DNA from: a bacterium
GTDB taxonomy: Bacteria; Patescibacteriota; Minisyncoccia; Minisyncoccales; GWA2-46-15
Direction: 5' to 3'
DNA: 64,000 nt
Assembly (NCBI GenBank): GCA_030693425.1
Contig: JAUYAM010000002.1
Coordinates: 81,151 to 145,150 of the forward strand
The translations under genes and the position numbers were made by a program. Each line of letters begins with the position of its first letter. Within the stretch, counting starts at the first letter, position 1. Shown piece by piece: positions 16,713 to 38,681 of this stretch. The notes under the pieces are model-generated. The model saw only the letters and a program-made list of their open reading frames with translations. It was not told where the DNA came from and made no database searches.

Positions 16713-18083
16713 ATGGTGGCAACAACAAAACAATTTAATATATTGGCCACAATAAGGCGGGAATTAACAGGACAGTTGTTAGCAAGAGTGGATAAAGGGG
16801 CAAATCCTTTAAGAGCTAATGCTTTGATTTGGAGTGAGTATGCAGATAGGTGTAATAAAGAAGGCTTGCCAGTTATTGGCGCGAATTTAAGTTTAGGCAA
16901 TATTGATGCGAGCAGCTTTGATCGTGAGCCGGGACATTGGCATTTGTCTCAAGCGTTGGGAATTCACCCTGATGGTGAAATATATAGGCAAATTAGTCTG
17001 ACTAAAGAAAAGTTAAATAGAGAGTATTATTTTTCAGGTAGATCGCTGGCGAAATATGGCGATTTTACCGGTATAGAAGAAGCGAGACTGGCTTTTTCAA
17101 AATATTTAGCCCAGTGGGGCGGAGTGATGATCAGTAAAGAAGAAACGTTTTTTTCTAGTGGCGGAACTTCAGATGCGGCTCAAAGAGAAATGGGAGCTTT
17201 GGTTTTATGGTTAGATAAGAAGCAACTAGAGGCTAACTTTTTAACCACTGTCCCTGGATACACGCCGGTAATTAATATGGCTAGAAGAGCGGGGATGCGA
17301 GTGATAACTTTAGAATGTGGCGAGACGGATAGTTATTTTTTACAGGCGGACCAGGCGCGTCAGATAGTACAAGATCAAAACATAGGAGTATTTTATATCG
17401 TACCGATTAACAATCCGACTGGGACGATGATTCCGGCGGATCAGCTAAGTCGGGTAGTAAAGCAAAGCTATGAAGCAAATACGGCAATAATTTTTTTAGT
17501 GGATTTGGCTTATATTACTACGGTGCCTGAAGAACAGGCGCGCGCGATGTTGGCAGTATTCAATAACAAAGAGATTTTAAGACAGACCGTGTTTTTAACC
17601 TCTTTGTCTAAATCTCACGCAATTCCCGGGCAGCGGCTGGGAGCTTGTCATACAATAGTAGCCGGAATGAACGAGTGTTTGCGCGCGGCCACCGAGGCCG
17701 GCAATCCCTGTCATTCAGCCGCGGCAATGCTGGAAGCGGTAGCGGTGCTGGAAAATGTTAGCAAGGAGGCAGTGCGGCAAACTGCGGCAGTGTATAGGCG
17801 GCGTAGAGAGGTAACAGTTGATGTTTTAAGAGACATTAATCGATTAACTGATAGAGAATTGTTTATTGATTTAGACCAGTTGAAAACTGACGGGGCGTTG
17901 TATGTTTATCCGCGACTAGGAAAAAGTAAAACTAGTTTGGATCTTTTTGTTCAGACTGGAATGTGGGGAATTGGGGGAAGATTTTTTGGGGCGGGTGACA
18001 ATGATCAACGAGTGCGCTTGGCAATAGGAGTTAATTCCAGTTTGGAAATTCAAGGCATTCCTTCACAACTAGATCTGTCTTAA
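16713..18083 (+). CDS. class I/II PLP-dependent aminotransferase
   Basis: INNPTGT and SLSKSHAIPGQRLG (PLP-lysine) motifs. Start trimmed from 16656 to MVATTKQ to remove overlap with the divergent gene. Confidence 0.8.
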   Translation: MVATTKQFNILATIRRELTGQLLARVDKGANPLRANALIWSEYADRCNKEGLPVIGANLSLGNIDASSFDREPGHWHLSQALGIHPDGEIYRQISLTKEKLNREYYFSGRSLAKYGDFTGIEEARLAFSKYLAQWGGVMISKEETFFSSGGTSDAAQREMGALVLWLDKKQLEANFLTTVPGYTPVINMARRAGMRVITLECGETDSYFLQADQARQIVQDQNIGVFYIVPINNPTGTMIPADQLSRVVKQSYEANTAIIFLVDLAYITTVPEEQARAMLAVFNNKEILRQTVFLTSLSKSHAIPGQRLGACHTIVAGMNECLRAATEAGNPCHSAAAMLEAVAVLENVSKEAVRQTAAVYRRRREVTVDVLRDINRLTDRELFIDLDQLKTDGALYVYPRLGKSKTSLDLFVQTGMWGIGGRFFGAGDNDQRVRLAIGVNSSLEIQGIPSQLDLS

Positions 18084-18155
18084 CCAATAGATAATTTTTC
18101 TGCGCCGCGGGCTTCTCGGATATTTTGAAAACCGTCTTTTTTCAAGAATTGCACC
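17983..18155. repeat. 173-bp direct repeat, copy 1 (aminotransferase 3' end plus antisense pyrD 3'-end fragment)
   Basis: Hand alignment to 25129..25301 gives 7 mismatches. This copy supplies the functional aminotransferase 3' end. Confidence 0.9.
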
Positions 18156-18210
18156 TGAAAAAGGCACCTGAAAAAGGTACCTGGTCCCTTTTCCCCTGGT
18201 CCCTTTTCCC
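18152..18210. repeat. junction tandem repeats (2x13 nt and 2x15 nt)
   Basis: cacctgaaaaagg x2, then ctggtcccttttccc x2. The two pairs are imperfect reverse complements of each other. They sit exactly where pyrD homology ends. Confidence 0.85.
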
Positions 18211-18224
18211 CTTGTCAATCCTAA

Positions 18225-18370
18225 TCATATTGGTAGTTCAATATAAAAAGAGGTGCCTTTGTTTTTTCCGGCCGATTCAACTCTGATATCTCCGCCGTGG
18301 AGCTTGACGAATTTCTGGGCGATGTAAAGGCCCAACCCGACTCCTTCGGTCCAGTAGCGGTCGCCGGCGT
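18225..18370 (-). pseudogene. orphan 3' fragment of sensor histidine kinase (fragment A)
   Basis: Encodes ...DRYWTEGVGLGLYIAQKFVKLHGGDIRVESAGKNKGTSFYIELPI (HATPase_c tail only). The upstream part of the 86-aa ORF is unrelated sequence. Confidence 0.85.
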
Positions 18371-18623
18371 TGCTGGTGCTGGTTGGTCTTACCATGACTG
18401 AATTTGAGACACTCGGGTCGAGGTCTAAAAATGTGAATATCTCAGTTTTTATAGTTTTGTTCGGAAAATGAGACAAATGAGACATGAAAAGACGCGTTCC
18501 GCTTTACCGGAACCAGATTATGCAGGGATTGAGAGCGTGGCAAGCGTTGAAAAACGAAACAATTGCTATTCTATAACATCTACCCGTCCTTCTACTCACT
18601 ATATTTAAGGCAATATCCTATCT

Positions 18624-19265
18624 CTAGGACGTTTCAATAGAGTCCATGAAGGTTTCTTCTTTGAACTTAATTAAAGCCTTATCCATTTTTTCCATGCGCT
18701 CTTTCGCAATATTTTTGCTACTTTTAAAAAATAATTCTCCGCTTTTTCTAATTTTGTCCTGTCTGTCAAAACTAAAATAATAATCAATCGCTTCTTTGAT
18801 ATCTTGATTATGTTTTCCAGCGTAAACCGCAAGTCTCCAAAAATTAAGCATTCCTATCTCGTCCAAATTATCCGCATCGTGGACTATTTTACTTTCAGTT
18901 AAATCAAATTTCTTATTTGAAAAATCTACTATCAATTTTATGACATAATCTTTATCGTTTTCATTTTTTATGAAGGGCACAATAAACTCCTCAAAAAGCA
19001 CAATGTTATTCTTATCGTGTTCGTCTAAAAAAAGTCTTTTTTCTAAAGCCAGTTTTTTATTTTTTCCAATATCGTGAAATAGAGACAAAATAATAGTACA
19101 ACCTATGCTTACTTTTTCTTGTAATACCTCAGATTTAATTATTCTTTCAGATAATTTTAATACCCTTAAAGGATGGTAATAGCGATAGTTTTTACCATCT
19201 TTTTCATCCTCAGAGTTATAATTGATTTCCTTAAAAAAGTTTAGTACCTGTTCTTTATTTTCCAT
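18624..19265 (-). CDS. HD-domain phosphohydrolase
   Basis: H...HD...D pattern: YHPLRV, LFHDIGK, HDADNLDEIG. AT-rich. Confidence 0.7.
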   Translation of the reverse strand: MENKEQVLNFFKEINYNSEDEKDGKNYRYYHPLRVLKLSERIIKSEVLQEKVSIGCTIILSLFHDIGKNKKLALEKRLFLDEHDKNNIVLFEEFIVPFIKNENDKDYVIKLIVDFSNKKFDLTESKIVHDADNLDEIGMLNFWRLAVYAGKHNQDIKEAIDYYFSFDRQDKIRKSGELFFKSSKNIAKERMEKMDKALIKFKEETFMDSIETS

Positions 19266-19308
19266 GTTTTTATGTTTAAAATAGGTGGCTAAAAGGATGG
19301 GAGAGGCT

Positions 19309-19902
19309 TTATTCCTCTCCCATCTTTTCTAGGACGACTCTCATAATTTCACTATGGATTTCAAGAGGTTTCTTTTCGCCATCCAGAATCACCCAGCCCT
19401 CGGCACAAGCCAGCGTTTCGTAGGCTTCGGCCATACGGGCATGGTATTCTAGATCCTTACCGTCAAAGAAATCTCTTCCACGAGCTTCAGTGCGTAATCC
19501 TGCCCTTTCTGGAGAAATCTTCAGAAGGAAAGTCAGATCTGGCTTTTTACCCTCAAAGGCAATCTTGTTTAATCTTCTTCTCAGGCCCTCATCCTGAGAC
19601 AAAAGACCAAATTGAGAGTGGTATGCCAAGTATGACTCATCCCACCGGTCTGCAAGGACGATTTGCCCAGCTCCCAGGGCCTCCGTGGCTTTTACGAACT
19701 GCTGGCGATGCAAAGCCTGAAAAGCCAGTGTGATAGCGACATCGTCCCAGTACAAGAAGAAATGAGATAGACCCTCCTTCTCTGCCTCATCATATGCCTT
19801 AGAGATAAATATTCTAAGTCCTTTTCTCTCCAAGACTTCTCGTAAAAGATAGATCTGCGTACCCTTTCCGCAACCATCAATTCCAGTTATACAGATTAAC
19901 AT
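19309..19902 (-). CDS. thymidylate kinase-like P-loop kinase
   Basis: GIDGCGKGT P-loop, ADRWDESYLAYH (DR motif region) and a PDLTFLLKISPERAGLR lid-like region. Clearly GC-richer than its neighbours and has a GGAGG SD 6 nt upstream. Confidence 0.65.
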   Translation of the reverse strand: MLICITGIDGCGKGTQIYLLREVLERKGLRIFISKAYDEAEKEGLSHFFLYWDDVAITLAFQALHRQQFVKATEALGAGQIVLADRWDESYLAYHSQFGLLSQDEGLRRRLNKIAFEGKKPDLTFLLKISPERAGLRTEARGRDFFDGKDLEYHARMAEAYETLACAEGWVILDGEKKPLEIHSEIMRVVLEKMGEE

Positions 19903-19943
19903 CGGAAGCCTCCTTCCTTCTCTCGAGCCTATGTTCTAGACAA

Positions 19944-20864
19944 TTAATGATCTATATAACAATAACACAAACCTGTTCTCAAAGCAACTCTTGGGCGCCA
20001 TTTGGTCAATTCATTAATCTTTTTTATATCTGCTCTAATAATAGAAGAATCTAATATTCTTTGTCTTAGTTTTACAGATTTTAGTTCAAACCTTTTTCCC
20101 GAGATATTATTTAAAATTCCAAATACCTGCTCTACCGACCATGCCTTGCCGGTTCCTACATTGAAAATCTGATTTTTACAATTAGTCTTAGTAAGGCTAA
20201 TTACGATGGCTCTTACAACATCCTCCACCCAAATATAATCCCTTCTACTTTTGAGATTACCTAGTTTTACCTCTTTATCTGCTTTCATTTGTTTGATTAT
20301 CTCGGGAATCAAGTGCGATGTTGTATCGTTTGGGCCGTACACATTAAATAGCCTCAAGGCCGTATAATCAATTCCGAATATGGGACTTAAAGTTCCTATT
20401 ATTTTCTCCCCTAATATTTTTGAAGCTCCATATATATCTAAAGATCCAACCTTATCAGTTTCTTTATGGGGCTTATTGCTGGGATAATAAACAGACGCTG
20501 AGGAAGAAAATATAAGTCTCTTTATGCCGTATTTTTTCATTAAAACAAGGATATTAAGGGTTCCGATTACATTTGTTTCAATCGTTTCTTTTTTATGGGC
20601 TTGACAATAAGGCATATAATGCTTTGCTGCTAAATGAATAATTGTGTCTATCTTCTCTTTTTTGAATACGTCCTCCAGTAGATTGCTCTTATATATATCT
20701 ACTTTATAAAATTTTACTTCGTTATTGATAAACGGTTTTCTTTCAGAAGACAGGTCATCAATTACAATTACCTTATACCCTAATTTTATAAGACTATTAA
20801 CCAAAAAGCTTCCTATAAATCCGCATCCTCCCGTCACAAGAATATTACTCTGTTTTCTTTTCAT
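19944..20864 (-). CDS. NAD-dependent nucleotide-sugar epimerase/dehydratase (SDR)
   Basis: VTGGCGFIGS Rossmann motif and catalytic YGASK. Confidence 0.8.
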   Translation of the reverse strand: MKRKQSNILVTGGCGFIGSFLVNSLIKLGYKVIVIDDLSSERKPFINNEVKFYKVDIYKSNLLEDVFKKEKIDTIIHLAAKHYMPYCQAHKKETIETNVIGTLNILVLMKKYGIKRLIFSSSASVYYPSNKPHKETDKVGSLDIYGASKILGEKIIGTLSPIFGIDYTALRLFNVYGPNDTTSHLIPEIIKQMKADKEVKLGNLKSRRDYIWVEDVVRAIVISLTKTNCKNQIFNVGTGKAWSVEQVFGILNNISGKRFELKSVKLRQRILDSSIIRADIKKINELTKWRPRVALRTGLCYCYIDH

Positions 20865-21420
20865 ATATAAGTTTTTCTATTAAGTTTCTGATTATTTTTT
20901 CTTCTACAAATGCACTATCTTTAAAAACATTTAAACTTTTAGTGTTGTCTTTACCAAATAGCATTTCGCAATAAAGTTTTAAATTTCGATTATAATTTCT
21001 GACAAGTTTATCATTAATCAGAATAAATTCTTTTAAATCCTTATTATCAAGAGATTTAGTTCCTATAAGGTAATCTTTATAGTTTATGTTAAAAATAATA
21101 CATAGGTCAAAGTTTTTATACGCCAAAAATCTCTCGTCTGCAATTAGTTTTCGTACGAGCGCATCTTTACTATCTCTACTTTTTATAAAAGATAGAGTAG
21201 AAGCAACAGACCTTTCTAAAACAACATCTGATTCCACTTCCATAGCCTTTTCTAAATTTTCTAAGTGCTTGTCATAATACCATCTATCTAGATCGGTTTT
21301 TTCTAATTTATGCTTTTTATGATCTGGCTCTCTTATAAATACAAAATCGTGCTTTTTTTCCAGAAATTCGCAAGCCAAGGTTTTTCCCAAAGCCCATAGG
21401 CCTTCAATTACGATTTTCAT
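20845..21420 (-). CDS. P-loop nucleoside/nucleotide kinase-like protein (deoxynucleoside kinase-like)
   Basis: Walker A GLWALGKT, REPD, and an ERS motif (VLERSVAS) as in dNK-family kinases. Weak assignment. Confidence 0.45.
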   Translation of the reverse strand: MKIVIEGLWALGKTLACEFLEKKHDFVFIREPDHKKHKLEKTDLDRWYYDKHLENLEKAMEVESDVVLERSVASTLSFIKSRDSKDALVRKLIADERFLAYKNFDLCIIFNINYKDYLIGTKSLDNKDLKEFILINDKLVRNYNRNLKLYCEMLFGKDNTKSLNVFKDSAFVEEKIIRNLIEKLIYEKKTE

Positions 21421-22636
21421 AATTTAAAGTTATATAATCTGGAACAGTAGACGAAAATTTTACTCTTTTTTCTTCCAGCCACATAGGTAGGGGCGATAGT
21501 CGTTGAAAAAAAATTTTATTCTTTTTCTCCTTATCCTTAACCCCAAGAACGAAAGAGCTTCTTTTTTTCTTAAATTTTGTTTTCTTGTAAAGCTTAATTA
21601 CTTTCTCGGCTATAAAATCAAATGAAAACTTTTTGCAAACTATTTCCCGCGCTTTTTTACTTTGTTCGGTTGCTACTTTCAGGTCATCCAATAGTTTCTC
21701 AACTAATTTCGGATATTTAGTGATATCATTTTCAATAATTGCAATATTGCGTGGATAACCTGAAATTCCCATTTCAGTAGATACTATAGGAAGCCCTGAG
21801 GCCGCGTAATTTAAAAGTTTTACTTTCATTCCAGAACCTTCAAAGACCGGTGCTATTGCAATAGAAGATTCTTTCAAAAAGGGCCTAATATCATCCACCC
21901 CTCCAGTAAAAACAACCTTGTCGGAAGAGAATTTCCTGCGGAAAGAATCTTCTACCATGCCAATACACAACAGTCTGGCATTGATATGGGGCACTATCAT
22001 TTTAATTGCTATTTCTGCAGCATTTCTGTTTGGTTCATAGAACATATTCCCCAGAAAAATAATTTGTCTTTTAGGTAAATTAGGAGAATTATACTTAAAA
22101 TAATCAGTATCTATACCGTTCGGTATTAAATTTATTTTATCCTTGAGTATGCCCATGTGAATGAATTCTTTTTTATCTTTAGGCGTCATACATATTACCT
22201 CATGAGAAAGATAGCCGGCAGAATATTGTATAAATTCTGAAATATCAATATCCTGTCTATCGCACCCGAGAGTCTTCTTTATAATTGCGTCACAATCATG
22301 CATCTCTGTAACAAGCGGAATTCTTAATTCATTAGAATAATATGCCCCGTACGAAAGCACCGATGAAGAGTTATTCACTTGGATAATGTCTGGCTTTTCT
22401 TTGCTAATAACGTTTTTTACGAAGTCTATCTTTTTATAAAAAACTTCTGGTGAAAATATATGAAATACAAAAGGTTCCTTTTTTAGGTCGTTATGGGAAA
22501 CCCATCCTCTCTCGCAAAGAAACATTACAACTCTAACCCCCTTTTCTTCAAGTTTTTTAGATAAATAGTACAGACGAAAGGCTACACCGCTTTTGGGAGG
22601 TATTTCAATGCCATCAAAGATTATACCTATTTTCAT
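21404..22636 (-). CDS. GT-B glycosyltransferase (family 4/1-like)
   Basis: 410 aa with two Rossmann-like halves. C-terminal EGSGMKVKLLNYAASGLPIVST matches the GT4 E-x7-E region. Confidence 0.75.
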   Translation of the reverse strand: MKIGIIFDGIEIPPKSGVAFRLYYLSKKLEEKGVRVVMFLCERGWVSHNDLKKEPFVFHIFSPEVFYKKIDFVKNVISKEKPDIIQVNNSSSVLSYGAYYSNELRIPLVTEMHDCDAIIKKTLGCDRQDIDISEFIQYSAGYLSHEVICMTPKDKKEFIHMGILKDKINLIPNGIDTDYFKYNSPNLPKRQIIFLGNMFYEPNRNAAEIAIKMIVPHINARLLCIGMVEDSFRRKFSSDKVVFTGGVDDIRPFLKESSIAIAPVFEGSGMKVKLLNYAASGLPIVSTEMGISGYPRNIAIIENDITKYPKLVEKLLDDLKVATEQSKKAREIVCKKFSFDFIAEKVIKLYKKTKFKKKRSSFVLGVKDKEKKNKIFFQRLSPLPMWLEEKRVKFSSTVPDYITLNYENRN

Positions 22637-22872
22637 GATAGAAGATGTTCTTTCTTAAAATATTTATAATGATTCCTTTCCTTTTTGCTATGATTTGATC
22701 TACCAGCATTTTCATCTCCAAAAAAAGAAGCAAGCAGCCTTGCCAACCCTTTATTAAAGCAATACACTCTCCTGTTTTTGTAATTATAAATGTAAATTTT
22801 GTCGTTTATCTCTTTTGCTATTATCATAATTGTCGTCGTTTTTATATTTATGCTATTTCCTTCAGAATCCAT
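22633..22872 (-). CDS. hypothetical small protein (79 aa)
   Basis: ATGA overlap with the glycosyltransferase gene. Faint resemblance of KIYIYNYKNRRVYCFNKGLARLL to PqqD-like peptide-binding domains, which is not enough to call. Confidence 0.3.
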   Translation of the reverse strand: MDSEGNSINIKTTTIMIIAKEINDKIYIYNYKNRRVYCFNKGLARLLASFFGDENAGRSNHSKKERNHYKYFKKEHLLS

Positions 22873-22975
22873 AAGGTTACTTGTAATAATCTTGTTTTTC
22901 CAACATTAAAGCAGTTTTTAGTAGCAAACTCGAGCTTTGCAATTTCTGGCCTCCGACGCCAAAGACCACTTCTAT

Positions 22976-23299
22976 TCATATTACTACCTCTGAAACATTC
23001 TCGGGAGTTAAATCTCCTCCCCTAGTAAAGATATTGGGCTTTATTTTCTCCAGTGTCTTAATTACTGTTCTGTGTTTGTCTATTGATAATACTGCTTCGT
23101 CCACCCACTTAATTGCTTTCACTATTTCAAATTTCTCTTTTCCTATCATAAAAGGCGCGCTTCCCTTTAATTTCACCTGTTCATCATTGTTCACTATCAC
23201 TATCAATTTATCTCCAAGCTTCTTGGCACCTCTTAAATATTTTAAATGTCCTATATGAATTGGATTAAAATATCCGCTGGCAACAACTATTTTCATCAT
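22976..23299 (-). CDS. cytidylyltransferase-fold nucleotidyltransferase, ends at an in-frame TGA (see finding)
   Basis: GYFNPIHIGH (HxGH) nucleotidyltransferase motif. 107 aa is short for the family. The same frame continues for 32 protein-like codons after the TGA. Confidence 0.65.
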   Translation of the reverse strand: MMKIVVASGYFNPIHIGHLKYLRGAKKLGDKLIVIVNNDEQVKLKGSAPFMIGKEKFEIVKAIKWVDEAVLSIDKHRTVIKTLEKIKPNIFTRGGDLTPENVSEVVI

Positions 23300-23362
23300 T
23301 TTGATCTTATGAAAATAACCCTGTAAATCTAAAATTTTTATGATTATCTATAAAGAGTTTAA

Positions 23363-24079
23363 CTAGAAATATCCATCTATTTCTTTGTCTAGTCGTTTAA
23401 AAAAATCTGCCATAAATTTATGCCTATCTATCGCCATTTTTTTACCTTCTTCTGTAAGCATTCTGTCTTTAATTTTACAAAGCTTAACACTAAATTCTCT
23501 ATAGGCAGTATCCTCTTTCGTATATGGCTTGGTTTTTTCCAGATCAATATCTTTATTATGAAGTCTGGCTCCGATTTCCCCAGAAAACAGAAAAGCCCTT
23601 CCTATGCCACAAGCTCCAATGGCATCAAGTTTATCCGCATCAAATAAGATTTGGGCCTCTCTACTCTGCGGGAAATTATTGCTTCTAAATCTGTGCGTTT
23701 TTATACAAGAAATAATTTTTTCTATTTTTTCTTGATCAATGTTATGTTTTTCTAAAAGTTCTTTGGCCAAAATCGCTCCCTTTTTGGCGTGACAAACCTT
23801 TCCATTTGACTTATATTCTTCTTCTCTGCCTATATCGTGTAAAATCGCGGCCATCCCTAGAACCTCTGTATCTACATTTTCCAAGCTACCTATTTTAATA
23901 CAAAGATTATAAACTCTTAAAGTATGGTCCCAGTTGTGGCTTCCTCTAGAATTTATAAAAAACTTCCTTGCTTCTTTTTTGATTCCCGACCAATCAAGAG
24001 TCAATCCATTCTTCTTATAAATTTTTCCTTTTTGCTGCCCTATTTCTTTGGGACTCCCTTTAAACGTTTTTATTTCCAT
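23363..24079 (-). CDS. HD-domain phosphohydrolase
   Basis: WDHTLRV, AAILHDIGR, FDADKLDAIG. Confidence 0.75.
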   Translation of the reverse strand: MEIKTFKGSPKEIGQQKGKIYKKNGLTLDWSGIKKEARKFFINSRGSHNWDHTLRVYNLCIKIGSLENVDTEVLGMAAILHDIGREEEYKSNGKVCHAKKGAILAKELLEKHNIDQEKIEKIISCIKTHRFRSNNFPQSREAQILFDADKLDAIGACGIGRAFLFSGEIGARLHNKDIDLEKTKPYTKEDTAYREFSVKLCKIKDRMLTEEGKKMAIDRHKFMADFFKRLDKEIDGYF

Positions 24080-24356
24080 ACAAATAAATTAGATTTAGTG
24101 TTTAAATTTATCGCAGAGCTACTCGAGTCACAGCTCTCTCGCGATCACTCGGGTCTGCACGATAAGAAATGGTCGTGGCGGGACACTCGGGTTAAGTGCC
24201 CAGGGTAGCCACATTTTTAAGAACATTATAGGTCTTTTTAGGCGATTTTGCCAGGGTTGAATTATTTCAATTGGCTGGTTTATATTAAACCCATCAGGCA
24301 CTGGGTTACGCACATCCCGAGAGTTCGTACACACTTTCACCTAATTTGTTATAACC

Positions 24357-24922
24357 GTGATATTATTATTAATAATAGATAAGTATTTTTTAATTTTAAT
24401 TTTATTTTACCTAATATTCTTAGGAGCCCTTTTTGAAGCCCCTTGGCTTCCTACAATGAAAAAGAACTTCGATAGAATAGCAAAATTAGCGGGTCTGCAA
24501 CCAGGCATGTTGTTTTATGATCTGGGTAGCGGTAGCGGTGAATTGTTATTTTGCTTATCAAAGAAATATGATGTGAATTGTATCGGGATAGAGATTTCAC
24601 CGCTTCTGTACTTGTATTCAAAAATCAAATCTTTATTTTTTAACAAAGTAAAAATTAGATACGGCAATTTTTACAAATACGATTTATCAAAAGCAGATGC
24701 GGTTTATGTTTTTCTATTCCCAAAAGCTTACTATAGATTAAAAACCAAAATTAGCTCGGGACTAAAAAAGGAGCAAGGGTAATATTATCTTACTGGCCCT
24801 TTGAATACTGGGAACCAACCGAAATAAGCGAAAAAGAAAATTCAGTCACCTATTATTTATATATTGTGCAAAAAGAAAAGGAAGGTTATTTTTTGTCAGT
24901 TAAAGCGGGAAGTTCAATATAA
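24357..24922 (+). pseudogene. TM-anchored class I SAM-dependent methyltransferase, frameshifted at an A6 run
   Basis: Track ORF 24357..24782 (GTG start) has motif I, FYDLGSGSGELL. After the A-run at about 24764-24769 the next frame reads KKGARVILSYWPFEYW, the expected continuation. Confidence 0.55.
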
Positions 24923-25137
24923 AAAGAGGTGCCTTTGTTTTTTCCGGCCGATTCAACTCTGATATCTCCGCCGTGGAGCCTGACGAATTTCTGGGCGATG
25001 TAAAGGCCAAGACCGGCTCCTTCGGTCCAGTATTTTCCGTCGGCCTGGCCTCTGGAAAAGCTTCGGAAAAGCTCTTTTAAGTCTTGTTTACTGATGCCCG
25101 CTCCCGTGTCTTTTATTTCTATGACGACTTTTTGGGG
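24886..25137 (-). pseudogene. orphan 3' fragment of sensor histidine kinase (fragment B), fused to antisense aminotransferase sequence
   Basis: Encodes VVIEIKDTGAGISKQDLKELFRSFSRG...GLGLYIAQKFVRLHGGDIRVESAGKNKGTSFYIELP. The N-terminal MPSALVDHCHPP of the 94-aa ORF is antisense to the repeat copy. Confidence 0.85.
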
Positions 25138-25301
25138 CGGGTGACAATGATCAACGAGTGCGCTTGGCAATAGGAGTTAATTCCAGTTTGGAAATTCAAG
25201 GCATTTCTTCACAATTAGATCTGTCTTAACTAATAGATAATTTTTCTGCGCCTCGGGCTTCTCGGATATTTTGAAAGCCGTCTTTTTTCAAAAGTTGCAC
25301 C
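25129..25301. repeat. 173-bp direct repeat, copy 2 (antisense-orphan aminotransferase 3' fragment plus functional pyrD 3' end)
   Basis: Hand alignment to 17983..18155 gives 7 mismatches. Confidence 0.9.
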
Positions 25302-26356
25302 AAACCGCGATTGATTTCGCTGATGAACTGCGGGCCCTCAAAAATCATTCCGGTAATGAGTTGGACCAGCGAAGCGCCCGCTTTAATTTTTGTATAGGCG
25401 TCAATGGCTGAAAAAATGCCGCCGCAGCCAATAATAATATATTTTCCACCGCTTTTCCGATAAATGAAGCGAATTTGAGCGTTGGACAACTCTTCTGTTG
25501 GCTTTCCGCTAATGCCGCCTTTTTCTGGAACTATCTGATCGCCCATTTTTAACGCGCTTCTATTTTTAGTAAGATTGCCGCAGATAAATCCATGAATGCG
25601 GTGGTTCTCGCATACTCGGAGGATAGCGTCAATCTGTTCTTCGCTTAGATCAGGAGACATTTTTAAAAAGATGGGTTTCTTCGTAGAAACGGCGTCAATT
25701 GCTAAAAGAAGACGGTTGAGTCGATCGGGTTCGGTAAAGGGCTCGCCGCCAAAAGCGTTCGGGCAGCTAATGTTGATGGTAAAGTAATGACCAATATCAA
25801 CAAACTGGCGAAACGCTTTTAGATAATCGTTAATTCCGGCTTCGGTTTCAACCGTGGCTAAACTATTAGTCTTGGCAATACTTGTTCCGAGAGGGATTTT
25901 GAAATTTTTTGAGCGTAACCGGCCAGCTATTTTTTCACATCCTTGATTCTTTAATCCGTAATATACTAGGAGAGAGCGCGATTCTTTCAAACGCCATAAC
26001 CGCGGCTTAGGATTGCCTTCGCACGGTTCACCGGTGATGGATCCTACTTCCGCAAATCCAAACCCAACGCAAGGAAGAATGTCAGTGAGCAAGGCGTCTT
26101 TATCAAAGCCAGCAGCCAATCCCACTGGATTAGGAAAATGTATTCCGAGGAGATTTTGTTCCAGCATCGGATGAGTAAAAGAAAATGACAGCGACGTTGC
26201 CTTTCTTGTAATCGCGCGTTGTCCGAGAAACTTGCCTATCCGCGTCATGGCGTTGTGAACTTCTTCCGGATCGAGGCGAAAATAAATAGGTTTTAATATA
26301 TTGGCGTAAAAAAAGTGAAACAATTTGTTTCGCGCCGCTATCGTCAAATTATTCAT
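25226..26356 (-). CDS. pyrD: dihydroorotate dehydrogenase, class 2 (quinone-type)
   Basis: 376 aa. N-terminal extension typical of class 2, plus GLAAGFDKDA and GCGGIFSAIDAY motifs. Confidence 0.85.
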   Translation of the reverse strand: MNNLTIAARNKLFHFFYANILKPIYFRLDPEEVHNAMTRIGKFLGQRAITRKATSLSFSFTHPMLEQNLLGIHFPNPVGLAAGFDKDALLTDILPCVGFGFAEVGSITGEPCEGNPKPRLWRLKESRSLLVYYGLKNQGCEKIAGRLRSKNFKIPLGTSIAKTNSLATVETEAGINDYLKAFRQFVDIGHYFTINISCPNAFGGEPFTEPDRLNRLLLAIDAVSTKKPIFLKMSPDLSEEQIDAILRVCENHRIHGFICGNLTKNRSALKMGDQIVPEKGGISGKPTEELSNAQIRFIYRKSGGKYIIIGCGGIFSAIDAYTKIKAGASLVQLITGMIFEGPQFISEINRGLVQLLKKDGFQNIREARGAEKLSIS

Positions 26357-26432
26357 AGTCCATTTCTTAGTTTTATTTCTAAAGGCGACTGTCGCCTTAT
26401 AGCAAGAAGAAAATCGTCAGTAAAATAATCGT

Positions 26433-27764
26433 TTAGGGTGAAAACTGGCTGGCGACTCGAGCAAAATCCCAGATTCCCGTCCGATTCGACTCCCCTATTT
26501 TCAAATGGTCCAAGCAATGATTCTCCCTTAGCTTTTTGATGAGATGAGCGGTGTAAGCCGGGGCGCCGGTGGCGCCGGGGGAGTTAAAGTTCAAGACGTG
26601 GAAGGATCTGTGACCGAAAATTTCCAATGCTTCTTTGACGAATTTCCCCTGACGATCAATGACCGGACTGCGAATGCCGGCCGAGCCTTTCTTCGTTAGA
26701 TATTCTGGTTTGACGCCGGGTAAAAACTTCCTGACTCGTCGGACCATTGCTTCCTTAAAAAAAGAACTTTGCCACTCTTCCAGGGCCAAGCGCAGAAACT
26801 CATGATTCATCATCAGTTTGATTTTATTTGCCAGGGGCATTTCAAAAACTTTCTTTAAGCCGGAAAGCGGATTCTCGAAAAATCCTTTATAGGCGTAAGG
26901 GCCCAGAACCGGCACGGCCGTTGGGCCGATCTCAACTTGATCGTCCCAACGGCTGATCCAGTGCGGGTCGAGAAAAGGAAATTCCGAGTGGCGCGGCACC
27001 GAGTAGATATTATGATTGGCCAAACCGGCTCGCGCCGGATCAACGATCCAGTATTCTCCGCGGAAATTTAAGTCGGTTAAATCTCGCGCCACGCCCAGAA
27101 GATGGGCAATTTTTACGGCTTGGCCGCCGGCGCAGTTCAGCACATATTTGGCCGAAAGATTTTTGCCGTTAGCAAGGGCGAGGTCAAGACAGCCGCCGGT
27201 TTTTTTGATTTTTTTAACCTCGCATTCCAGCAAAAATTCAACCCCGTCGTTTTCCGCGTCGCTTCTTAAACTTTTTGTCAATGCGTAAAAATCGGTGGCA
27301 ACGTCCGTTTTGCAGAAAAAAGCTCCTCGGCACTCTATATTCGGCTCCATTTTCTTTGCCTCCGCCGAATCCAGAAGCTCGATTTCCTTTTCGTCCATTC
27401 CGTTCTCCGCCGACCATTTCTGGTATTTCTTGAGGGTCAGCAGATCGGCCTCGTTAAGAGCCACCTCGAGCGTTCCCCTTTTGACCCAGGGGAGCTGTTT
27501 CAGCGAAGCGTATTTTTCCCAGAGCGGAAAAGACAAGAGAGCCGAGCGGGCGAAAATTTTCTTTTTTTCCGGATCGAGGTAAAACGGCCGGTGGACAACT
27601 CCGGTATTACGCTTGGTGGCGTGCAGGCCGGTGTCGTTCTCTTTTTCTATGACGACAATCCCCCCTGTTTCGTAAATGGTTGCCAGCCAATAAGCCAGGG
27701 TTGTTCCCAGAATTCCTCCGCCTACGATCGCCAGATTGTATGTTTTGCTTTTTGGCAGATCCAT
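26433..27764 (-). CDS. FAD-dependent oxidoreductase, L-2-hydroxyglutarate oxidase (LhgO)-like
   Basis: IVGGGILGT dinucleotide fold, with FRGEYW and NFNSPGATGAPA motifs as in the LhgO/DAO family. Confidence 0.6.
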   Translation of the reverse strand: MDLPKSKTYNLAIVGGGILGTTLAYWLATIYETGGIVVIEKENDTGLHATKRNTGVVHRPFYLDPEKKKIFARSALLSFPLWEKYASLKQLPWVKRGTLEVALNEADLLTLKKYQKWSAENGMDEKEIELLDSAEAKKMEPNIECRGAFFCKTDVATDFYALTKSLRSDAENDGVEFLLECEVKKIKKTGGCLDLALANGKNLSAKYVLNCAGGQAVKIAHLLGVARDLTDLNFRGEYWIVDPARAGLANHNIYSVPRHSEFPFLDPHWISRWDDQVEIGPTAVPVLGPYAYKGFFENPLSGLKKVFEMPLANKIKLMMNHEFLRLALEEWQSSFFKEAMVRRVRKFLPGVKPEYLTKKGSAGIRSPVIDRQGKFVKEALEIFGHRSFHVLNFNSPGATGAPAYTAHLIKKLRENHCLDHLKIGESNRTGIWDFARVASQFSP

Positions 27765-27795
27765 TCTTGCTGTTTTTTGGCCCAGTCGGCTCCTC

Positions 27796-30039
27796 TCAGC
27801 GGTCTCGACTTGTTTTGCTTAGGATTAGATTCCCTATTTCATTTTTGTCTGCTGCCATCGGCAGATCAATGTAAAAAGAGGTGCCTTTGTTTTTTCCGGC
27901 TGATTCGGCGCGGATATCGCCGCCGTGGAGCTTGACGAATTTCTGGGCGATGTAAAGGCCCAACCCGGCTCCTTCGGTCCAGTAGCGGTCGCCGGCGTGG
28001 CCTCTAGAAAAGCTTTTGAAAAGGTCTTTGAGGTCTTTTTTGCTGATACCCGCCCCGGTGTCTTTTATTTCAATGACGACTTTTTGGGATAGTCCCCGGC
28101 TTTGACTGGCTTCGACGGTAATGTTTCCCTTTTGGGTGTAGAGGATGGCGTTGTCAATGATAATAATAAGCACCTGCCTGATTTTTTCCTTGTCCATAAG
28201 AATTTGGGGCAACGGCTCTTTCTCCTCTTTGTAGGCTAAAACTAGGTTCTTTCCCTTGGCTTCGGTTTTTAGGGCTTCGATGACGCTGGTAATCAGTTCT
28301 TTGAGCGAGCTCTTTTCCAGGTTTAGTTCGATTCGGCCGGCTTCTATTCTGGAAACTGTTAAAATATCTCCGACCAGCTTTATTAACCTCTCGTTTGTCT
28401 GAAAAACTCTTTGGATAGGCTCTTTCATTCTCCCGGGCATGTTTCCGTAGGTTCCTTCAACGGCCATCGACAAATACCCCTTGATAATACTCAAAGGAGT
28501 TCTTAGTTGGTGCGAAGCAATGGAGATAAACTCCGATTTTGCCTCGTCTAGTTTTTTGAGCTCTTCGTAAGCCTCTTTTAATTCTCTGGTTTGTTCATCA
28601 ACCTTGGCTTGGAGGTTTTTTGACAAGTCTTGAACTTGGGAATAAAGCTTGGCGTTTTGCAGGGCAATCGAGGCCTGATGCGACAGGGCCGTGAGCAGGT
28701 CCAAGTCCTCTTTGGAATAGGAATCTCCGGAAATCTTGTTGCCCAGGACGATGATGCCGATAATTTTATCTTCGATTAAAAGCGGCAGGCAGAGGCTGGC
28801 CTCAATCCTTTTCATGTTTTGCTTCAGCTTTTCGAGATCGGTTTTTTCCGTCATTTTGCTGTCTCTAATGACCAAAGACAATTCCTCATAAACCAAGGCT
28901 CTTTTGGTTTTCTCGAGATATGAGGTTAAGAAATCGTCCCTGACCAAAGAGATGCCGTTTTCCTCTCTGAATCCGATATTCTTTTTGATCTGGTAGTCTC
29001 CGGTTTGAGGATCCCTTAAAAGGATGACCGTTCTGTCTAACTTCATGGTTTCTACCAGGGTGCTGGTGATTAAAGAAGCTAACTGATCAAGGTCTAATAC
29101 TCGGGTCAATTTTCTTCCCATGTTGATGATGACCGTTTGATACGAATAGAATGTGTAATAGAAATATTTTGAAGCCAGGTTTTCAAAAAAACGGTAGACC
29201 GGTTGAAATAAAAGGATGCTTAAAAAAATAATTAATGGTCCTAAAACATTGAAAGTTGCTGGTTGCTCTAATTTGTTATTCAGAATGATTGTCAAAGAAG
29301 CCAGACCGATGACGACAAGGAAGGAAAGAAAATAAACCGCGCTTTTGCCGATGACAAAACGGATATCCATTAGTTGATAGACCATGACGGCGTAAGAAAC
29401 AAAACCGACCATGAAAAGAGTTGCCACCTGGCCAAGCCAATTAAAGCGGAAATCACCGATGGTCGGCAGGAATAAATTAAAGATTGATCCCAGAACAATG
29501 GAAAGGCTGGTCCCCAAGAGCATATACCTGACTTGTGATTTTAGGATCCCATGAGACTTTATATATCTTTTAAAAAGATTCCAAAGAGCCCAGGTGAAAT
29601 AGCTGGAAATGTAGACCGTATAAAGGAGATAAGCTGGTCCCCAAAGAATTTCTTTTTCTTGGCCAAGATGAACTTTTACATCTTTGATAATCATTCCTTT
29701 CAAAGCTACCAAGACGACTACAATAATCATTGGCAAGACAATCAAGAGACATTCTCTTTTTGTGATTTTCCATTCTCCGTGGGGGTAGATAAAGGTAAAA
29801 TATAAGAAAGAGATCGGAATAAGGGTGGCCGAAACATAAAGAATCTGGCACCAAATAACAGAAGTTTCTTGCGGCGAGGATCTGTAGAGAATCATCGAGG
29901 CTATCCAGAGGATGACTGCTCCGATAACAGTGCTCCAAATCAAATTTACTTTTCCTCTTTTGCTTTTAAAATAACTGAAAAATGCCAAAGCAAAATTAGC
30001 AATCAGGACAATTACAAGAATAGTATTTTTCCAGTCCAT
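27796..30039 (-). CDS. sensor histidine kinase (7TM N-terminal domain, GAF-like, HisKA, HATPase_c)
   Basis: 747 aa. About 7 TM helices, HisKA SIASHQLRTPL, HATPase GAGLGLYIAQKFVKLHGGDIRAESAGKNKGTSFYIDLP. This is the intact source-like copy of the repeated 3' segment. Confidence 0.9.
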   Translation of the reverse strand: MDWKNTILVIVLIANFALAFFSYFKSKRGKVNLIWSTVIGAVILWIASMILYRSSPQETSVIWCQILYVSATLIPISFLYFTFIYPHGEWKITKRECLLIVLPMIIVVVLVALKGMIIKDVKVHLGQEKEILWGPAYLLYTVYISSYFTWALWNLFKRYIKSHGILKSQVRYMLLGTSLSIVLGSIFNLFLPTIGDFRFNWLGQVATLFMVGFVSYAVMVYQLMDIRFVIGKSAVYFLSFLVVIGLASLTIILNNKLEQPATFNVLGPLIIFLSILLFQPVYRFFENLASKYFYYTFYSYQTVIINMGRKLTRVLDLDQLASLITSTLVETMKLDRTVILLRDPQTGDYQIKKNIGFREENGISLVRDDFLTSYLEKTKRALVYEELSLVIRDSKMTEKTDLEKLKQNMKRIEASLCLPLLIEDKIIGIIVLGNKISGDSYSKEDLDLLTALSHQASIALQNAKLYSQVQDLSKNLQAKVDEQTRELKEAYEELKKLDEAKSEFISIASHQLRTPLSIIKGYLSMAVEGTYGNMPGRMKEPIQRVFQTNERLIKLVGDILTVSRIEAGRIELNLEKSSLKELITSVIEALKTEAKGKNLVLAYKEEKEPLPQILMDKEKIRQVLIIIIDNAILYTQKGNITVEASQSRGLSQKVVIEIKDTGAGISKKDLKDLFKSFSRGHAGDRYWTEGAGLGLYIAQKFVKLHGGDIRAESAGKNKGTSFYIDLPMAADKNEIGNLILSKTSRDR

Positions 30040-31791: not shown

Positions 31792-31863
31792 CATCGGCAG
31801 TTCAACGTAAAAAGCGGTGCCTTTGTTTTTTCCCGCTGATTCGGCGCGGATATCGCCGCCGTG
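31792..31863 (-). pseudogene. orphan 3' fragment of sensor histidine kinase (fragment D)
   Basis: Encodes HGGDIRAESAGKNKGTAFYVELP. About 5 mismatches over 72 nt to 27856-27927. Shares an exact cggcagttcaacgtaaaa with the 3' end of the kinase at 11467. Confidence 0.8.
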
Positions 31864-31960
31864 GCCAGAGATAAAATGTCCGAGGATAACGAATTTCATT
31901 ATTAGACAAATCTCCTTTAACTGCTTATTATTTTAGCACGATAGCTGGGGTTGCCAAGCC

Positions 31961-31989: not shown

Positions 31990-32067
31990 TGAGGTGTTGT
32001 ACACTGTCAATCCCGCTGAGGCGTTATGCCGGAAGCGGGAAAAATATTCAGAAAAGGAGAAGTACAG

Positions 32068-32682
32068 ATGAATACGACGAATTTGCAACAAGCTTTGCAA
32101 GAGGCTCGGGAACGAGCCGAACAGGCCGAACGGGCTCGTGTCGAAGCCGAGACCCAAGCGAAGCTCTTCGGAGTTTTGGCCCGGGTAGCCCAGGCCGATG
32201 TCAAGGCCACTCAGGCCGTGGTCGATGTCAAAGAGACCGAGGCTACTTGGCGGAAAGCCGGCGAAAACGAGGCAATCGCCTCCGAGGCCAAAACCAAGGC
32301 CGAGGCCGGAAAGACCGAGGCCGAGAAGAAATTGGTCCAGGCCAAAGCTGACTTCAAGGTCGCCGAGGCCAGTGAGGTTCAGGCCAAGGATATTCTGGTT
32401 GCAGCCGCCAAGGTGGCTCAGGCCATGGCTATTGCCAAGGCCGATGCTGACAAGGATCTGGCCGTGGCCCGAGCAGAGCTGGAAAAAATCCAGCCTCTGG
32501 CCCCCGCCCCCGAGCCCACTCCAGTTCCCGTTCTCGACTCCGTTCCGGCCAAAGCCCATGTCGGATTTTGGGCCAAGTTGTTTGGGGGTCAATCAACCGT
32601 CAAATGCCCGAGCTGCGGGCAGATGACGCCTCAGGGGCCATTCTGCGTTAACTGCAGCGGGGCACTAGGAGGTGTTGCATGA
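32068..32682 (+). CDS. Ala/Glu/Lys-rich coiled-coil protein with C-terminal zinc ribbon
   Basis: Start trimmed to MNTTNLQQ, with a GGAG SD 8 nt upstream. C-terminal CPSCG...CVNC. About 60% GC. Confidence 0.65.
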   Translation: MNTTNLQQALQEARERAEQAERARVEAETQAKLFGVLARVAQADVKATQAVVDVKETEATWRKAGENEAIASEAKTKAEAGKTEAEKKLVQAKADFKVAEASEVQAKDILVAAAKVAQAMAIAKADADKDLAVARAELEKIQPLAPAPEPTPVPVLDSVPAKAHVGFWAKLFGGQSTVKCPSCGQMTPQGPFCVNCSGALGGVA

Positions 32683-33545
32683 CCTCCCTTACTTGCCCTG
32701 GCTGTGGCCAGCCGGTTCGGGTCGGCTGGAAGTTCTGCGGCAGTTGTCGCACTCCATTGTCCGCCCCGCCCGCCGCCGCTACCCCCGCCCAGCCTGCGCC
32801 TCAGGCCACGCCCCGGATCCCGTTTCGCGTGCGGATCCGGAAGAACTGGCCCCTGTGGGTGGGCCTGGCGGTCATCGGGTCGTGCTGCATGTGCGGGGCC
32901 CTGCTAGTCTCGGCCCTTTGGCTCGAGACGCTGAAATCCACTGTTCAAACAGTGGCTCAGCAGCAGGTCGAGCCGCCGGCATCGTATGTGCCGACGCAGG
33001 CCCCGGCCGTGGTCCCTCAACCTGATTCTGGGGCCCAGCCCCAGCCCGGGACATCTGATCCCGGGATCGCACCTCTCGCGCCCCTGTCGCTCCCGCCCGC
33101 CCTGTCCGGCCAATACCAGGTGGTGGATCCTGACGGAAATTACCTCGTCGGGACCATCACTTTCGCCGATGGGGCCGGCTGCTACGACGGGTGCGGGTCT
33201 TTCTCAGCGAATATCACGCCGAGAGAAGTCCAGGCCATGGACGACGGCACGATCGTCTTCCACTTCCAGATCGATTTTCTGGAGGTCAGCGGCAATCCAT
33301 ATTTCCGGCAGGAGTTCTTGAACGCCACAATGTATATCAACAACGTGGAGTTCAAGCCCACCGGCAGTTCTCTCCCAAGTCAGGTTACCCCGGAATTAGT
33401 GGGGAAACCACTGATGGGGTACCTGACATTCCCGGGACGGATTCTCGCGGTGGATCCAGCGAATTCACCGGAGTATAGTTTCCGGCTCGAGATTCCCCTT
33501 CTCAATCAGCCACTAGTAGGAGGGTGGCTGAAACCAAAGAGCTAG
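32679..33545 (+). CDS. zinc-ribbon / Pro-rich / single-TM protein with extracytoplasmic domain
   Basis: N-terminal CPGCG...CGSC, a Pro/Ala linker and the TM helix WPLWVGLAVIGSCCMCGALLVSALWL. ATGA overlap with the upstream gene. Confidence 0.65.
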   Translation: MTSLTCPGCGQPVRVGWKFCGSCRTPLSAPPAAATPAQPAPQATPRIPFRVRIRKNWPLWVGLAVIGSCCMCGALLVSALWLETLKSTVQTVAQQQVEPPASYVPTQAPAVVPQPDSGAQPQPGTSDPGIAPLAPLSLPPALSGQYQVVDPDGNYLVGTITFADGAGCYDGCGSFSANITPREVQAMDDGTIVFHFQIDFLEVSGNPYFRQEFLNATMYINNVEFKPTGSSLPSQVTPELVGKPLMGYLTFPGRILAVDPANSPEYSFRLEIPLLNQPLVGGWLKPKS

Positions 33546-36284: not shown

Positions 36285-37349
36285 ATGAGAGAAGCTTTAG
36301 TTTACGAAAAACTGAAAGAAGGTTTGGTCCGCTGTCAGGTTTGCCAGAGGCGGTGTTTGGTTGCAGAGGGCAAGACCGGCTTTTGCTTGACAAAGAGAAA
36401 TAAAGGCGGAAAACTAGTCAGCCTGAATTACGGCCTGATCCGAGGAGTCCAATTGGACCCGATTGAGAAAAAGCCTTTTTACCATTTCCGTCCGGGCGCC
36501 TGGGTTCCTTCGATCGGAAACTTTGGCTGCAATTTTAGGTGCAAGCAGTGCCTGAACTGGTGGTGCTCCTGGGGCGAGCCCGCCCAAATTTTGCTCCGCA
36601 AAATTCTGGCGGGTGAACCGGCTGAAATAATTAAACCAGAGCAGCTTATATCTGATTTTAAAAAAGCCGGTTACAAAAGTATTGCTTTCACTTACAACGA
36701 GCCGGTTGTCTGGGCAGAATACGTTTTAGACGCTTCAAAGCTGGCAAAACAGGAAGGTTTTTTTACCGTCTTTGTCACCAACGGCTCCTGGACTAAGGAA
36801 ACCTTAGATAAGATCGGCAAGTTCATTGACGCCGCCAACATCGATTTCAAAGGCTTTTCTGATAAGACTTACAGCAAAATGGGCGCTTTTTTCGGGCAGG
36901 TTCCCGAGATGGCAAAGTACGCCCAGGAAAAACACAAAATCTTTATTGAGATTACCACTCTCTTGATTCCTGGAATCAACGACGGCAAGGAAGAGTTGGA
37001 AGAAATGACAAGATGGATGGTAAAGCACTTGGGCCCAAAGACTCCCTGGCATCTAAGCCGTTTTGACCCGGATCTTGCTCCCGACAAAAGCTTTCAGGCC
37101 CTGCCCCAGACTTCGGTTAAAGATTTAGACAAGGCTGCGGCCATCGGCAAGAAGTCGGGATTGAAGTTTATCTATATCTGGGCGCCGGGTCAGAATTTAC
37201 CCGGAGGCCTCTATGCCCAGGGCAATACCTTTTGTCCGAAGTGCGGCCAGCTGGCGATAGAAAGAACTGCCTGGCAGCCAAAGCTGGTTGGCATAGACAA
37301 AAATGGCTGTTGCTCAAATTGCCAAGAGGATTTAAATGTTAAATTATAA
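36285..37349 (+). CDS. amrS: AmmeMemoRadiSam system radical SAM enzyme
   Basis: CNFRCKQC (CxxxCxxC) cluster motif, N-terminal CQVCQRRC and C-terminal CPKCG...CSNC. PFL-activase-like architecture. Confidence 0.75.
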   Translation: MREALVYEKLKEGLVRCQVCQRRCLVAEGKTGFCLTKRNKGGKLVSLNYGLIRGVQLDPIEKKPFYHFRPGAWVPSIGNFGCNFRCKQCLNWWCSWGEPAQILLRKILAGEPAEIIKPEQLISDFKKAGYKSIAFTYNEPVVWAEYVLDASKLAKQEGFFTVFVTNGSWTKETLDKIGKFIDAANIDFKGFSDKTYSKMGAFFGQVPEMAKYAQEKHKIFIEITTLLIPGINDGKEELEEMTRWMVKHLGPKTPWHLSRFDPDLAPDKSFQALPQTSVKDLDKAAAIGKKSGLKFIYIWAPGQNLPGGLYAQGNTFCPKCGQLAIERTAWQPKLVGIDKNGCCSNCQEDLNVKL

Positions 37350-37353
37350 TTCC

Positions 37354-37971: not shown

Positions 37972-38018
37972 AGAAAAGAAGCCGTTTTGTCAAATCAAAA
38001 AGACTGCCATTTAATTTT

Positions 38019-38050
38019 CTCACTTCACTGCTACGTAGCAGTGAAGTGAG
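38019..38050. repeat. perfect 32-bp palindrome, core CTGCTACGTAGCAG (family member 2)
   Basis: ctcacttcactgctac|gtagcagtgaagtgag, 48 nt after the stop at 37971. Confidence 0.9.
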
Positions 38051-38111
38051 GATTGTGTCATTATAATTTTAGGACGATATTAAATTAGGTTTAAAAGTAA
38101 AATAGAAAACT

Positions 38112-38630: not shown

Positions 38631-38633
38631 TCG

Positions 38634-38663
38634 TCAGTATACTGCTACGTAGCAGTATACTGA
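38634..38663. repeat. perfect 30-bp palindrome, core CTGCTACGTAGCAG (family member 3)
   Basis: tcagtatactgctac|gtagcagtatactga, 4 nt after the stop at 38630. Confidence 0.9.
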
Positions 38664-38681
38664 TGAGAGACGGCAAGGAAC

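Follow-up and report, generated by a model that had tools for sequence, protein, structure and literature searches.

A low-GC gene island between duplicated gene ends at the aminotransferase-pyrD junction of a Patescibacterium

Genes, repeats and joints at the locus

We examined a 64,000-nucleotide stretch of contig JAUYAM010000002.1 (positions 81,151 to 145,150, assembly GCA_030693425.1; hereafter the window), in which two convergent metabolic genes are separated by a low-GC gene island. To the left lies an intact class I/II aminotransferase (AT) gene (16713..18083, plus strand; Pfam Aminotran_1_2). To the right lies an intact gene for quinone-dependent dihydroorotate dehydrogenase, pyrD (25226..26356, minus strand; Pfam DHO_dh), beyond which come an FAD-dependent oxidoreductase gene of the DAO family (26433..27764, minus strand) and HK1, an intact histidine kinase (HK) gene with a 7TM-GAF-HisKA-HATPase architecture (27796..30039, minus strand). 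The inserted DNA, about 6.97 kb at 18156-25128, is bracketed by direct repeats of 173 nt (17983-18155 and 25129-25301), which a repeat search and base-by-base comparison found to differ at exactly seven sites (18060, 18069, 18085, 18107, 18131, 18146 and 18148 in the numbering of copy 1). The copies are identical over their first 77 nt, and all seven mismatches fall within the last 96 nt. Each copy holds the final 101 nt of the AT gene, stop codon included, and the antisense final 72 nt of pyrD; the stop codons of the two convergent genes share bases within TTAA, and no spacer separates the genes. Copy 1 carries the true AT 3' end, the last 101 nt of the intact gene, together with a dead 72-nt fragment of pyrD. 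Copy 2 carries a dead 101-nt fragment of AT together with the true pyrD 3' end. This is the arrangement that the first-pass annotation had drawn from the sequence, with seven mismatches, about 100 nt of AT and about 75 nt of pyrD per copy, and copy 1 completing AT while copy 2 completes pyrD; the base comparison and the gene coordinates bear it out.

Judged by its proteins, the host is an uncultured, groundwater-type, Falkowbacteria-like bacterium of the candidate phyla radiation (CPR), the nearest relatives of its pyrD being CPR/Patescibacteria. The window's pyrD, glycosyltransferase and kinase proteins form single-member clusters, represented by one metagenome-assembled genome at NCBI, on a 453-kb contig, and by the Logan assemblies of run SRR13727538. 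Only one relative shares the gene order, Candidatus Falkowbacteria GW2011_GWA2_39_24, whose pyrD product is 85% identical at the amino acid level and whose aminotransferase is 80% identical across all 456 residues. A scan of metagenome contigs with the AT alignment returned contigs of this relative only, and a scan of genome contigs with the AT protein found no relative. On four independent contigs of GWA2_39_24, pyrD and AT abut without a spacer. Gene order further matches that of the window across AT, a 499-aa gene, a nitroreductase, ThiF and a second kinase, and on one contig (L004) a 179-nt segment at 6566-6744 aligns by blastn to both repeat copies of the window. The adjacency of pyrD and AT is thus ancestral and 18156-25128 is an insertion. 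The first-pass annotation had noted that the content of each copy is what an ancestral convergent junction would look like and had proposed comparing the locus among relatives; the empty site in GWA2_39_24 shows that junction directly. Relative to this outgroup, the functional halves of the repeats mostly retain the ancestral state and the derived changes fall in the dead halves, with most of those in copy 1 sitting in its dead pyrD part. This pattern fits decay in place.

Both edges of the insertion are chimeric joints. At the left joint (J1, 18151..18216), the five nucleotides GCACC are common to the junction and pyrD and are followed by short tandem repeats, which Tandem Repeats Finder resolves into 2.5 copies of a 13-nt unit (18151-18183) and 2.5 copies of a 15-nt unit (18180-18216). 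Neither unit occurs anywhere else in the window, and they may represent slippage or filler DNA. At the right joint (J2, 25129-25136), an HK fragment passes into the AT fragment through the octamer TTTTTGGG, which both intact genes carry at the matching point, HK at 28081-28088 and AT at 17983-17990, and which has only nine occurrences in the window when both strands are counted. The microhomologies at the joints are therefore 5 nt on the left and 8 nt on the right. J2 forms the left edge of the 173-nt repeat and J1 its right edge, a placement that would follow if the repeat survives from a larger duplicated unit. The first-pass annotation had noticed the tandem repeats at the left breakpoint, the chimeric right joint with its 8-nt microhomology and two kinase fragments between the repeat copies, and we find all of these as described.

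Both kinase fragments give HATPase_c matches, are oriented like HK1 and align to its 3' end at 27842-28088, which represents their source type. Fragment A (about 18214..18375, minus strand) has roughly 150 nt of homology and ends in ...FYIELPI*. Its HK homology stops at a further joint, J4 (18375/18376). Fragment B (24890..25136, minus strand) retains 82 intact codons, ends in ...FYIELPALTDKK* and finishes in the TTTTTGGG microhomology. Of the homologues that a search of 5.8 billion proteins brought up, HK1 itself, only 2.7 kb away, matches both fragments best, at 90% amino acid identity for A and 84% for B (86% at the nucleotide level for B), and the next-best matches reach 66-77%. The fragments therefore originated locally or in a very close relative. 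Between fragment B and HK1, synonymous divergence (dS) is 0.50 and nonsynonymous divergence (dN) is 0.10, a dN/dS of about 0.2, and the frame is open over all 82 codons, which indicates that B diverged as part of a functional gene. Its divergence is too great for it to have been copied recently from HK1 as that gene now stands.

The three kinase sequences are mosaics, as fragment A shows most plainly. From 18237 to 18303, A is identical to B and differs from HK1 at eight positions, whereas from 18304 to 18372 it is identical to HK1 and differs from B at 11; beyond 18375 it is unrelated to either. All eight B-type sites precede all 11 HK1-type sites, an order with a chance of about 1 in 75,000, so at least one recombination or conversion event must have taken place among the copies. 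A and B, which bracket 6,676 bp, are also direct repeats of each other, with 95% identity over 125 nt and an exact stretch of 69 nt.

There is a fourth remnant of this kinase 3' end, fragment D (31792..31864, minus strand), in which 73 nt are 95% identical to HK1 27856-27928. It is HK1-type over the stretch where A resembles B, encodes ...FYVELPMTKF* and is cut at 31864/31865, beside a compositionally foreign block of high GC. Homologous kinases, like A and B, stop a few residues past ...ELP. HK1 runs on into a derived C-terminal extension of about 15 aa (NEIGNLILSKTSRDR, 27796-27841) that is absent from A, B, D and the homologue P0175, a hint that the 3' flank of HK1 was itself rearranged. 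The mosaicism of the copies, the divergence of B and the existence of fragment D had escaped the first-pass annotation.

Cargo of the island and the search for mobility functions

The island carries 10-11 ORFs, somewhat more than the nine genes counted in the first-pass annotation, which had correctly placed them between the kinase fragments. Nine form a minus-strand operon (18624..24340). In order of position, these encode an HD hydrolase (18624-19265), a dTMP-kinase-like protein (19309-19902), a GalE-like epimerase (19944-20864), a dNK-like P-loop kinase (20845-21420), a GT4 glycosyltransferase (21404-22636), a 79-aa ORF, an RfaE-domain-II-like nucleotidyltransferase interrupted by an in-frame TGA (22976-23299), a second HD hydrolase (23363-24079) and a 70-aa ORF (24128-24340). 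A 3' untranslated stretch (18376..18623, minus strand) with a terminator-like hairpin at 18513-18496 separates the operon from fragment A. On the other side, a small SAM-methyltransferase-like ORF on the plus strand (24357..24782) is convergent with fragment B. Most island genes have a GC content of 28-35%, against 42-50% in the flanks, in keeping with the AT-rich insertion first described; that description does not extend to the dTMP-kinase-like gene (46%) and the 70-aa ORF (47%), whose host-like values make the island a compositional mosaic.

The glycosyltransferase, P-loop kinase, epimerase and dTMP-kinase-like genes are collinear with an operon in Shapirobacteria and in another CPR genome. 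There the products are 32-53% identical to the core of the cargo at the amino acid level and housekeeping genes surround the operon. The closest homologue of the island's glycosyltransferase is 54% identical. The low GC, this distance to the closest glycosyltransferase and the position of the cassette among housekeeping genes elsewhere argue that the cargo was acquired horizontally, and the locus combines two general marks of a genomic island, an empty syntenic site in a relative and a deviating GC content. Going by its domains, the cargo is predicted to be a nucleotide-sugar/glycosyltransferase cassette with a role in envelope glycosylation. Several CPR metagenome proteins of about 620 aa, among them P0138 and P0139, combine a GT4 and a dNK-like kinase domain in one fused chain, which suggests that the adjacent glycosyltransferase and P-loop kinase of the cassette may work together.

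At least one cargo gene is decaying. The nucleotidyltransferase gene (22880-23299, minus strand) has a TGA at codon 108 (22976-22978), beyond which the homologous C-terminus continues; read through the TGA, the product would be a full-length protein of 140 aa with the expected C-terminal ...SSS motif. The TGA is probably a nonsense mutation. We considered a donor using genetic code 25, in which UGA encodes glycine, and rejected it: the recognizable island genes contain only one such codon, and the closest homologues of the cassette use code 11. A role of the cargo in defense was likewise set aside, the searches having yielded nothing beyond weak generic domain matches.

The island looks like no self-mobile element. 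Pfam, NCBIfam, PHROGs and PADLOC reveal no integrase or transposase among its ORFs, and the PHROGs matches are to generic metabolic families only. A Pfam scan of the larger ORFs (at least 100-120 aa) found no integrase or transposase between 1 and 49.4 kb of the window. The claim of the first-pass annotation that the window contains neither thus stands for that range, the remaining 49.4-64 kb lying outside the scan. The island ORFs include no replication, partition or integration genes, a search for plasmid or phage relatives returned none, viral contigs searched by protein and by motif gave no relatives, and nothing matched an Rfam family. No tRNA lies near the island, the sole one in the window being at 53485. 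Terminal inverted repeats are also absent, the best candidate near the ends, in AT-rich sequence, reaching 72% over 29 nt. The locus therefore does not resemble a transposon or insertion sequence, which would bring a transposase and a target duplication of 2-14 bp rather than 173 bp, and an integrative element with an integrase in or beside it is not what we see. The 173-nt repeat does span the 3' ends of two genes, but its edges are chimeric joints. In the collections searched, we found no donor of the island, the 54%-identical glycosyltransferase being the best homologue, the 3' motif shared by the HK copies had no matches in a scan of genome contigs, and a search of the contig index for the exact HK1 protein was likewise empty.

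Routes by which the island may have entered

The insertion is genuine and moderately old, and was most likely made by the cell's own machinery of recombination and repair rather than by a self-mobile element. Since the two stop codons overlap, a plain insertion at this junction would truncate one of the genes, and only an event that duplicates the junction would be tolerable. The best reading, to which we give a probability of roughly 45%, is a duplication with microhomology followed by replacement of the spare pyrD-DAO copy with foreign DNA. Illegitimate recombination between the TTTTTGGG octamers of AT and HK would first have created a tandem duplication of a 2,960-bp unit consisting of the AT 3' end, pyrD, the DAO gene and the HK 3' end (today 25129-28088). 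This step would yield both the chimeric HK/AT joint J2 and a spare copy of pyrD and DAO. Inside the spare copy, about 2.54 kb could then have been swapped at no cost for the low-GC cassette of another Patescibacterium, which probably arrived as free DNA. This DNA would have paired on the right through homology to the HK 3' end; on the left, it would have been joined illegitimately at GCACC, with polymerase slippage producing the 13- and 15-nt units. The first copy would survive only at its two ends, the first 173 nt as repeat copy 1 and the last 247 nt as fragment B. Conversion between the copies of the HK 3' end, together with decay by point mutation, may have completed the present arrangement.

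Several observations favor this order of events. At J2, HK (28088) is joined to AT (17983) at the same octamer in both, the signature of a tandem-duplication joint, and the closeness of the HK fragments to HK1 argues for a local process or for entry guided by homology. The duplication route accounts together for the microhomologies, the coincidence of repeat edges and joints, the closeness to HK1 and the pattern of functional and dead halves. It resembles the microhomology-mediated (RecA-independent) tandem segmental duplications of bacteria in that a distal end is joined to a proximal one through 8 nt and both ends of the unit are present twice. It differs from them in that the interior of one copy has been replaced by foreign DNA and the surviving HK end is far more diverged than the AT/pyrD end. 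The first-pass annotation had offered duplication followed by illegitimate recombination as one of two explanations, and of its overall interpretation this part, which suits the joints well, survives along with the ancestral junction.

The second step would have a counterpart in homology-facilitated illegitimate recombination, which has been described during natural transformation in Acinetobacter, Pseudomonas stutzeri and Streptococcus pneumoniae. Both would involve foreign DNA free of mobility genes, homology on one side, microhomology on the other and loss of the recipient DNA between. Here, these would be the HK 3' homology on the right, the GCACC slippage joint on the left and low-GC cargo at most 54% identical to any known homologue. 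Unlike in the described cases, the anchor would be a 247-nt gene fragment of roughly 85% identity, and where the process was observed in those bacteria, here it is deduced from one genome with transformation assumed. The same recombination acting on full-length HK1 without a prior duplication was rejected, for it would delete pyrD and DAO, both of which are intact.

A number of points weigh against duplication and replacement. The weightiest is that the two surviving ends of the first copy, 173 nt and 247 nt, do not look equally old: the AT/pyrD repeats differ by 4%, whereas B differs from HK1 by about 14%. This inequality demands either that B was overwritten by donor sequence as the DNA entered by its homologous anchor or that the 3' end of HK1 was converted later, possibly from a paralogue that left fragment D. 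Fragment A, B-type over its first 67 nt and HK1-type over the next 70, needs a further event. In addition, blastn and tblastx detect no remnant of the spare pyrD-DAO copy in the island, and no intermediate or donor genome is present in any collection searched.

We regard a one-step insertion with target duplication, through microhomology-mediated template switching or double illegitimate recombination, as unlikely, although it deserves serious consideration. A short-patch form of double illegitimate recombination has been described (bioRxiv 10.1101/2023.11.22.568220). At this locus, a broken or stalled replication end would have left at GCACC in the pyrD 3' end with initial slippage, copied an ectopic or incoming template comprising fragment A, the island and the first 247 nt of a separate kinase gene (HK'), and switched back at TTTTTGGG, 173 nt behind its point of departure. 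Such an event would explain the microhomologies of 5 and 8 nt at the two joints and the slippage-type tandem units at the left one. It would also let fragment B, the spacer, the methyltransferase ORF and the island be the natural neighbors that they look like. The homology of B to HK1 stops at a natural HK gene end (compare P0175), and its divergence under purifying selection fits a functional HK' gene. Against this, it would be a coincidence, with a chance well under 1%, for the insertion to come to lie 2.7 kb from the one gene closely related to its HK fragments, unless homology guided it; the estimate uses the typical CPR genome size of about 1 Mb. The HK1-type segment of fragment A would still require a later conversion, and we find no source locus in any database, the glycosyltransferase cluster having a single member, on one contig, and the assembly no second copy.

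Improbable in our view is the other explanation of the first-pass annotation, a Campbell-type single crossover of a circle carrying the 173-bp AT/pyrD segment beside the island, and we extend this judgment to a variant in which a 6.68-kb circle with one HK 3' fragment recombined into an HK fragment resident at the site. Direct repeats around a whole insert are what a single crossover produces, here as in Campbell-type insertion-duplication generally, and fragments A and B could be read in the same way as the direct repeats bracketing 6,676 bp. The identical first 77 nt could moreover be a conversion tract of the crossover, the confinement of all seven mismatches to the last 96 nt having a chance of about 0.015. 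However, a circle with the 173-bp segment must already contain both illegitimate joints, which presupposes what needs explaining. The stretch is also a short substrate for homologous recombination, the island lacks replication, partition and integration genes as well as plasmid, phage or viral relatives, and the HK flanks, closest to the resident HK 2.7 kb away, point to a local origin. Illegitimate repeat edges and a nested pair of HK repeats are likewise foreign to Campbell-type insertion. The circle with 173-bp homology thus gains no specific support.

A more general idea, which we hold to be speculative and rather improbable, is that CPR bacteria repeatedly exchange cassettes without an integrase by using the conserved 3' end of this 7TM-GAF HK family as a handle of homology. 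Islands carrying a short HK 3' fragment, possibly as circles of roughly 6.7 kb after uptake, may enter through homologous recombination of the host wherever an HK 3' end is present; the remnants left behind may be A, B and D, all within 14 kb and each edging foreign DNA. Downstream of the orthologous HK on a contig of GCA_039739295.1, where we looked for such a remnant, none was found.

There is only a slight chance that the arrangement is a metagenomic mis-assembly through the exact repeats of 77 or 69 nt, with the island belonging elsewhere or to another strain, although the genome does come from one sample and such repeats do exist. Two contigs from Logan, an independent k=31 assembly of SRR13727538, match the window at 100% over 25176-27949 and 18310-24940, and exactly these contig ends follow from a k=31 de Bruijn graph of the window sequence by itself. 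Both repeat variants and the kinase repeats are therefore present in the reads, with no extra branches inside. J1 and J2 are unique sequences, which no assembler would build from overlaps of 5-8 nt. The truncated gene end beside an intact convergent partner at each joint indicates duplication in real molecules, and the seven differences between the repeat copies follow the pattern of functional and dead halves. The concern about mis-assembly expressed in the first-pass annotation is thus largely answered. A small residual doubt concerns mainly an alternative threading through the 69-nt exact A/B repeat, which would at most yield a scarred chromosome and a separate circle of 6.68 kb.

Last, and very improbable, is a degenerate site-specific integrative element that lost its integrase and whose repeats are attL and attR, since the direct repeats, low GC and accessory-type cargo that suit it are outweighed by the lack of an integrase within 1-49.4 kb and of a tRNA target, by repeat edges that are chimeric joints to unrelated gene fragments with no att core, by PHROGs matches confined to generic metabolic families and by the cassette not being island-like in other CPR genomes.

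The locus is reminiscent of the minimal mobile elements of Neisseria, cassettes that transformation and homologous recombination swap between conserved flanking genes. In both, a cassette without an integrase lies between housekeeping genes that are adjacent, with the site empty, in a relative. The Neisseria elements are not known to have flanking duplications or chimeric joints, and here we see only one occupied and one empty state. CPR/Patescibacteria have tiny genomes with few recognizable mobile elements and are thought to rely on DNA uptake; their acquisition of genes is poorly documented. The locus may be read as a base-resolved scar of the entry of a multi-gene envelope-glycosylation cassette without integrase or transposase, by way of microhomology joints and short homology, in which a local duplication would have permitted insertion into a junction with no spacer. 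The locus adds a further case to a known kind of event, rarely documented in the CPR lineage, and is not a new type of system. For annotators, it is a reminder that long repeats around an island are not proof of a mobile element.

Other variable segments around pyrD and HK1

The surroundings of pyrD vary beyond the island. At two further pyrD loci, from relatives at 88% (L003) and 83% (L008), the gene neighborhoods are wholly different and similarity to the window stops at the gene borders. On the basis of these comparisons, pyrD appears to have been relocated repeatedly in the host group. Within the window, the segment 26357-34402 stands in place of two small genes of GWA2_39_24, making both sides of pyrD variable. 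This segment includes the high-GC block (32026-33545), which reaches 68% GC in 300-nt windows against a background of about 45% and encodes two zinc-ribbon proteins, one of them rich in Ala, Glu and Lys.

The region downstream of the kinase is variable in another lineage too. The closest homologue of HK1 (66% amino acid identity) lies in GCA_039739295.1 (contig L016, 5024-12067), preceded by a homologue, 64% identical, of the 334-aa gene of the window and followed by a cassette for a 1570-aa RHS/YD-repeat protein.

Similarity by blastn to the GWA2_39_24 contig is also interrupted between 36256 and 39767, around a block of radical SAM, LigB/Memo-like, Trp-repressor-like and AMMECR1 genes (36285-39745). 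Inside this block, two near-perfect palindromes of 33 nt (38020-38052 and 38634-38666; TCACTTCACTGCTACGTAGCAGTGAAGTGAGGA and a 79% variant) flank the Trp-repressor-like gene (38112-38630).

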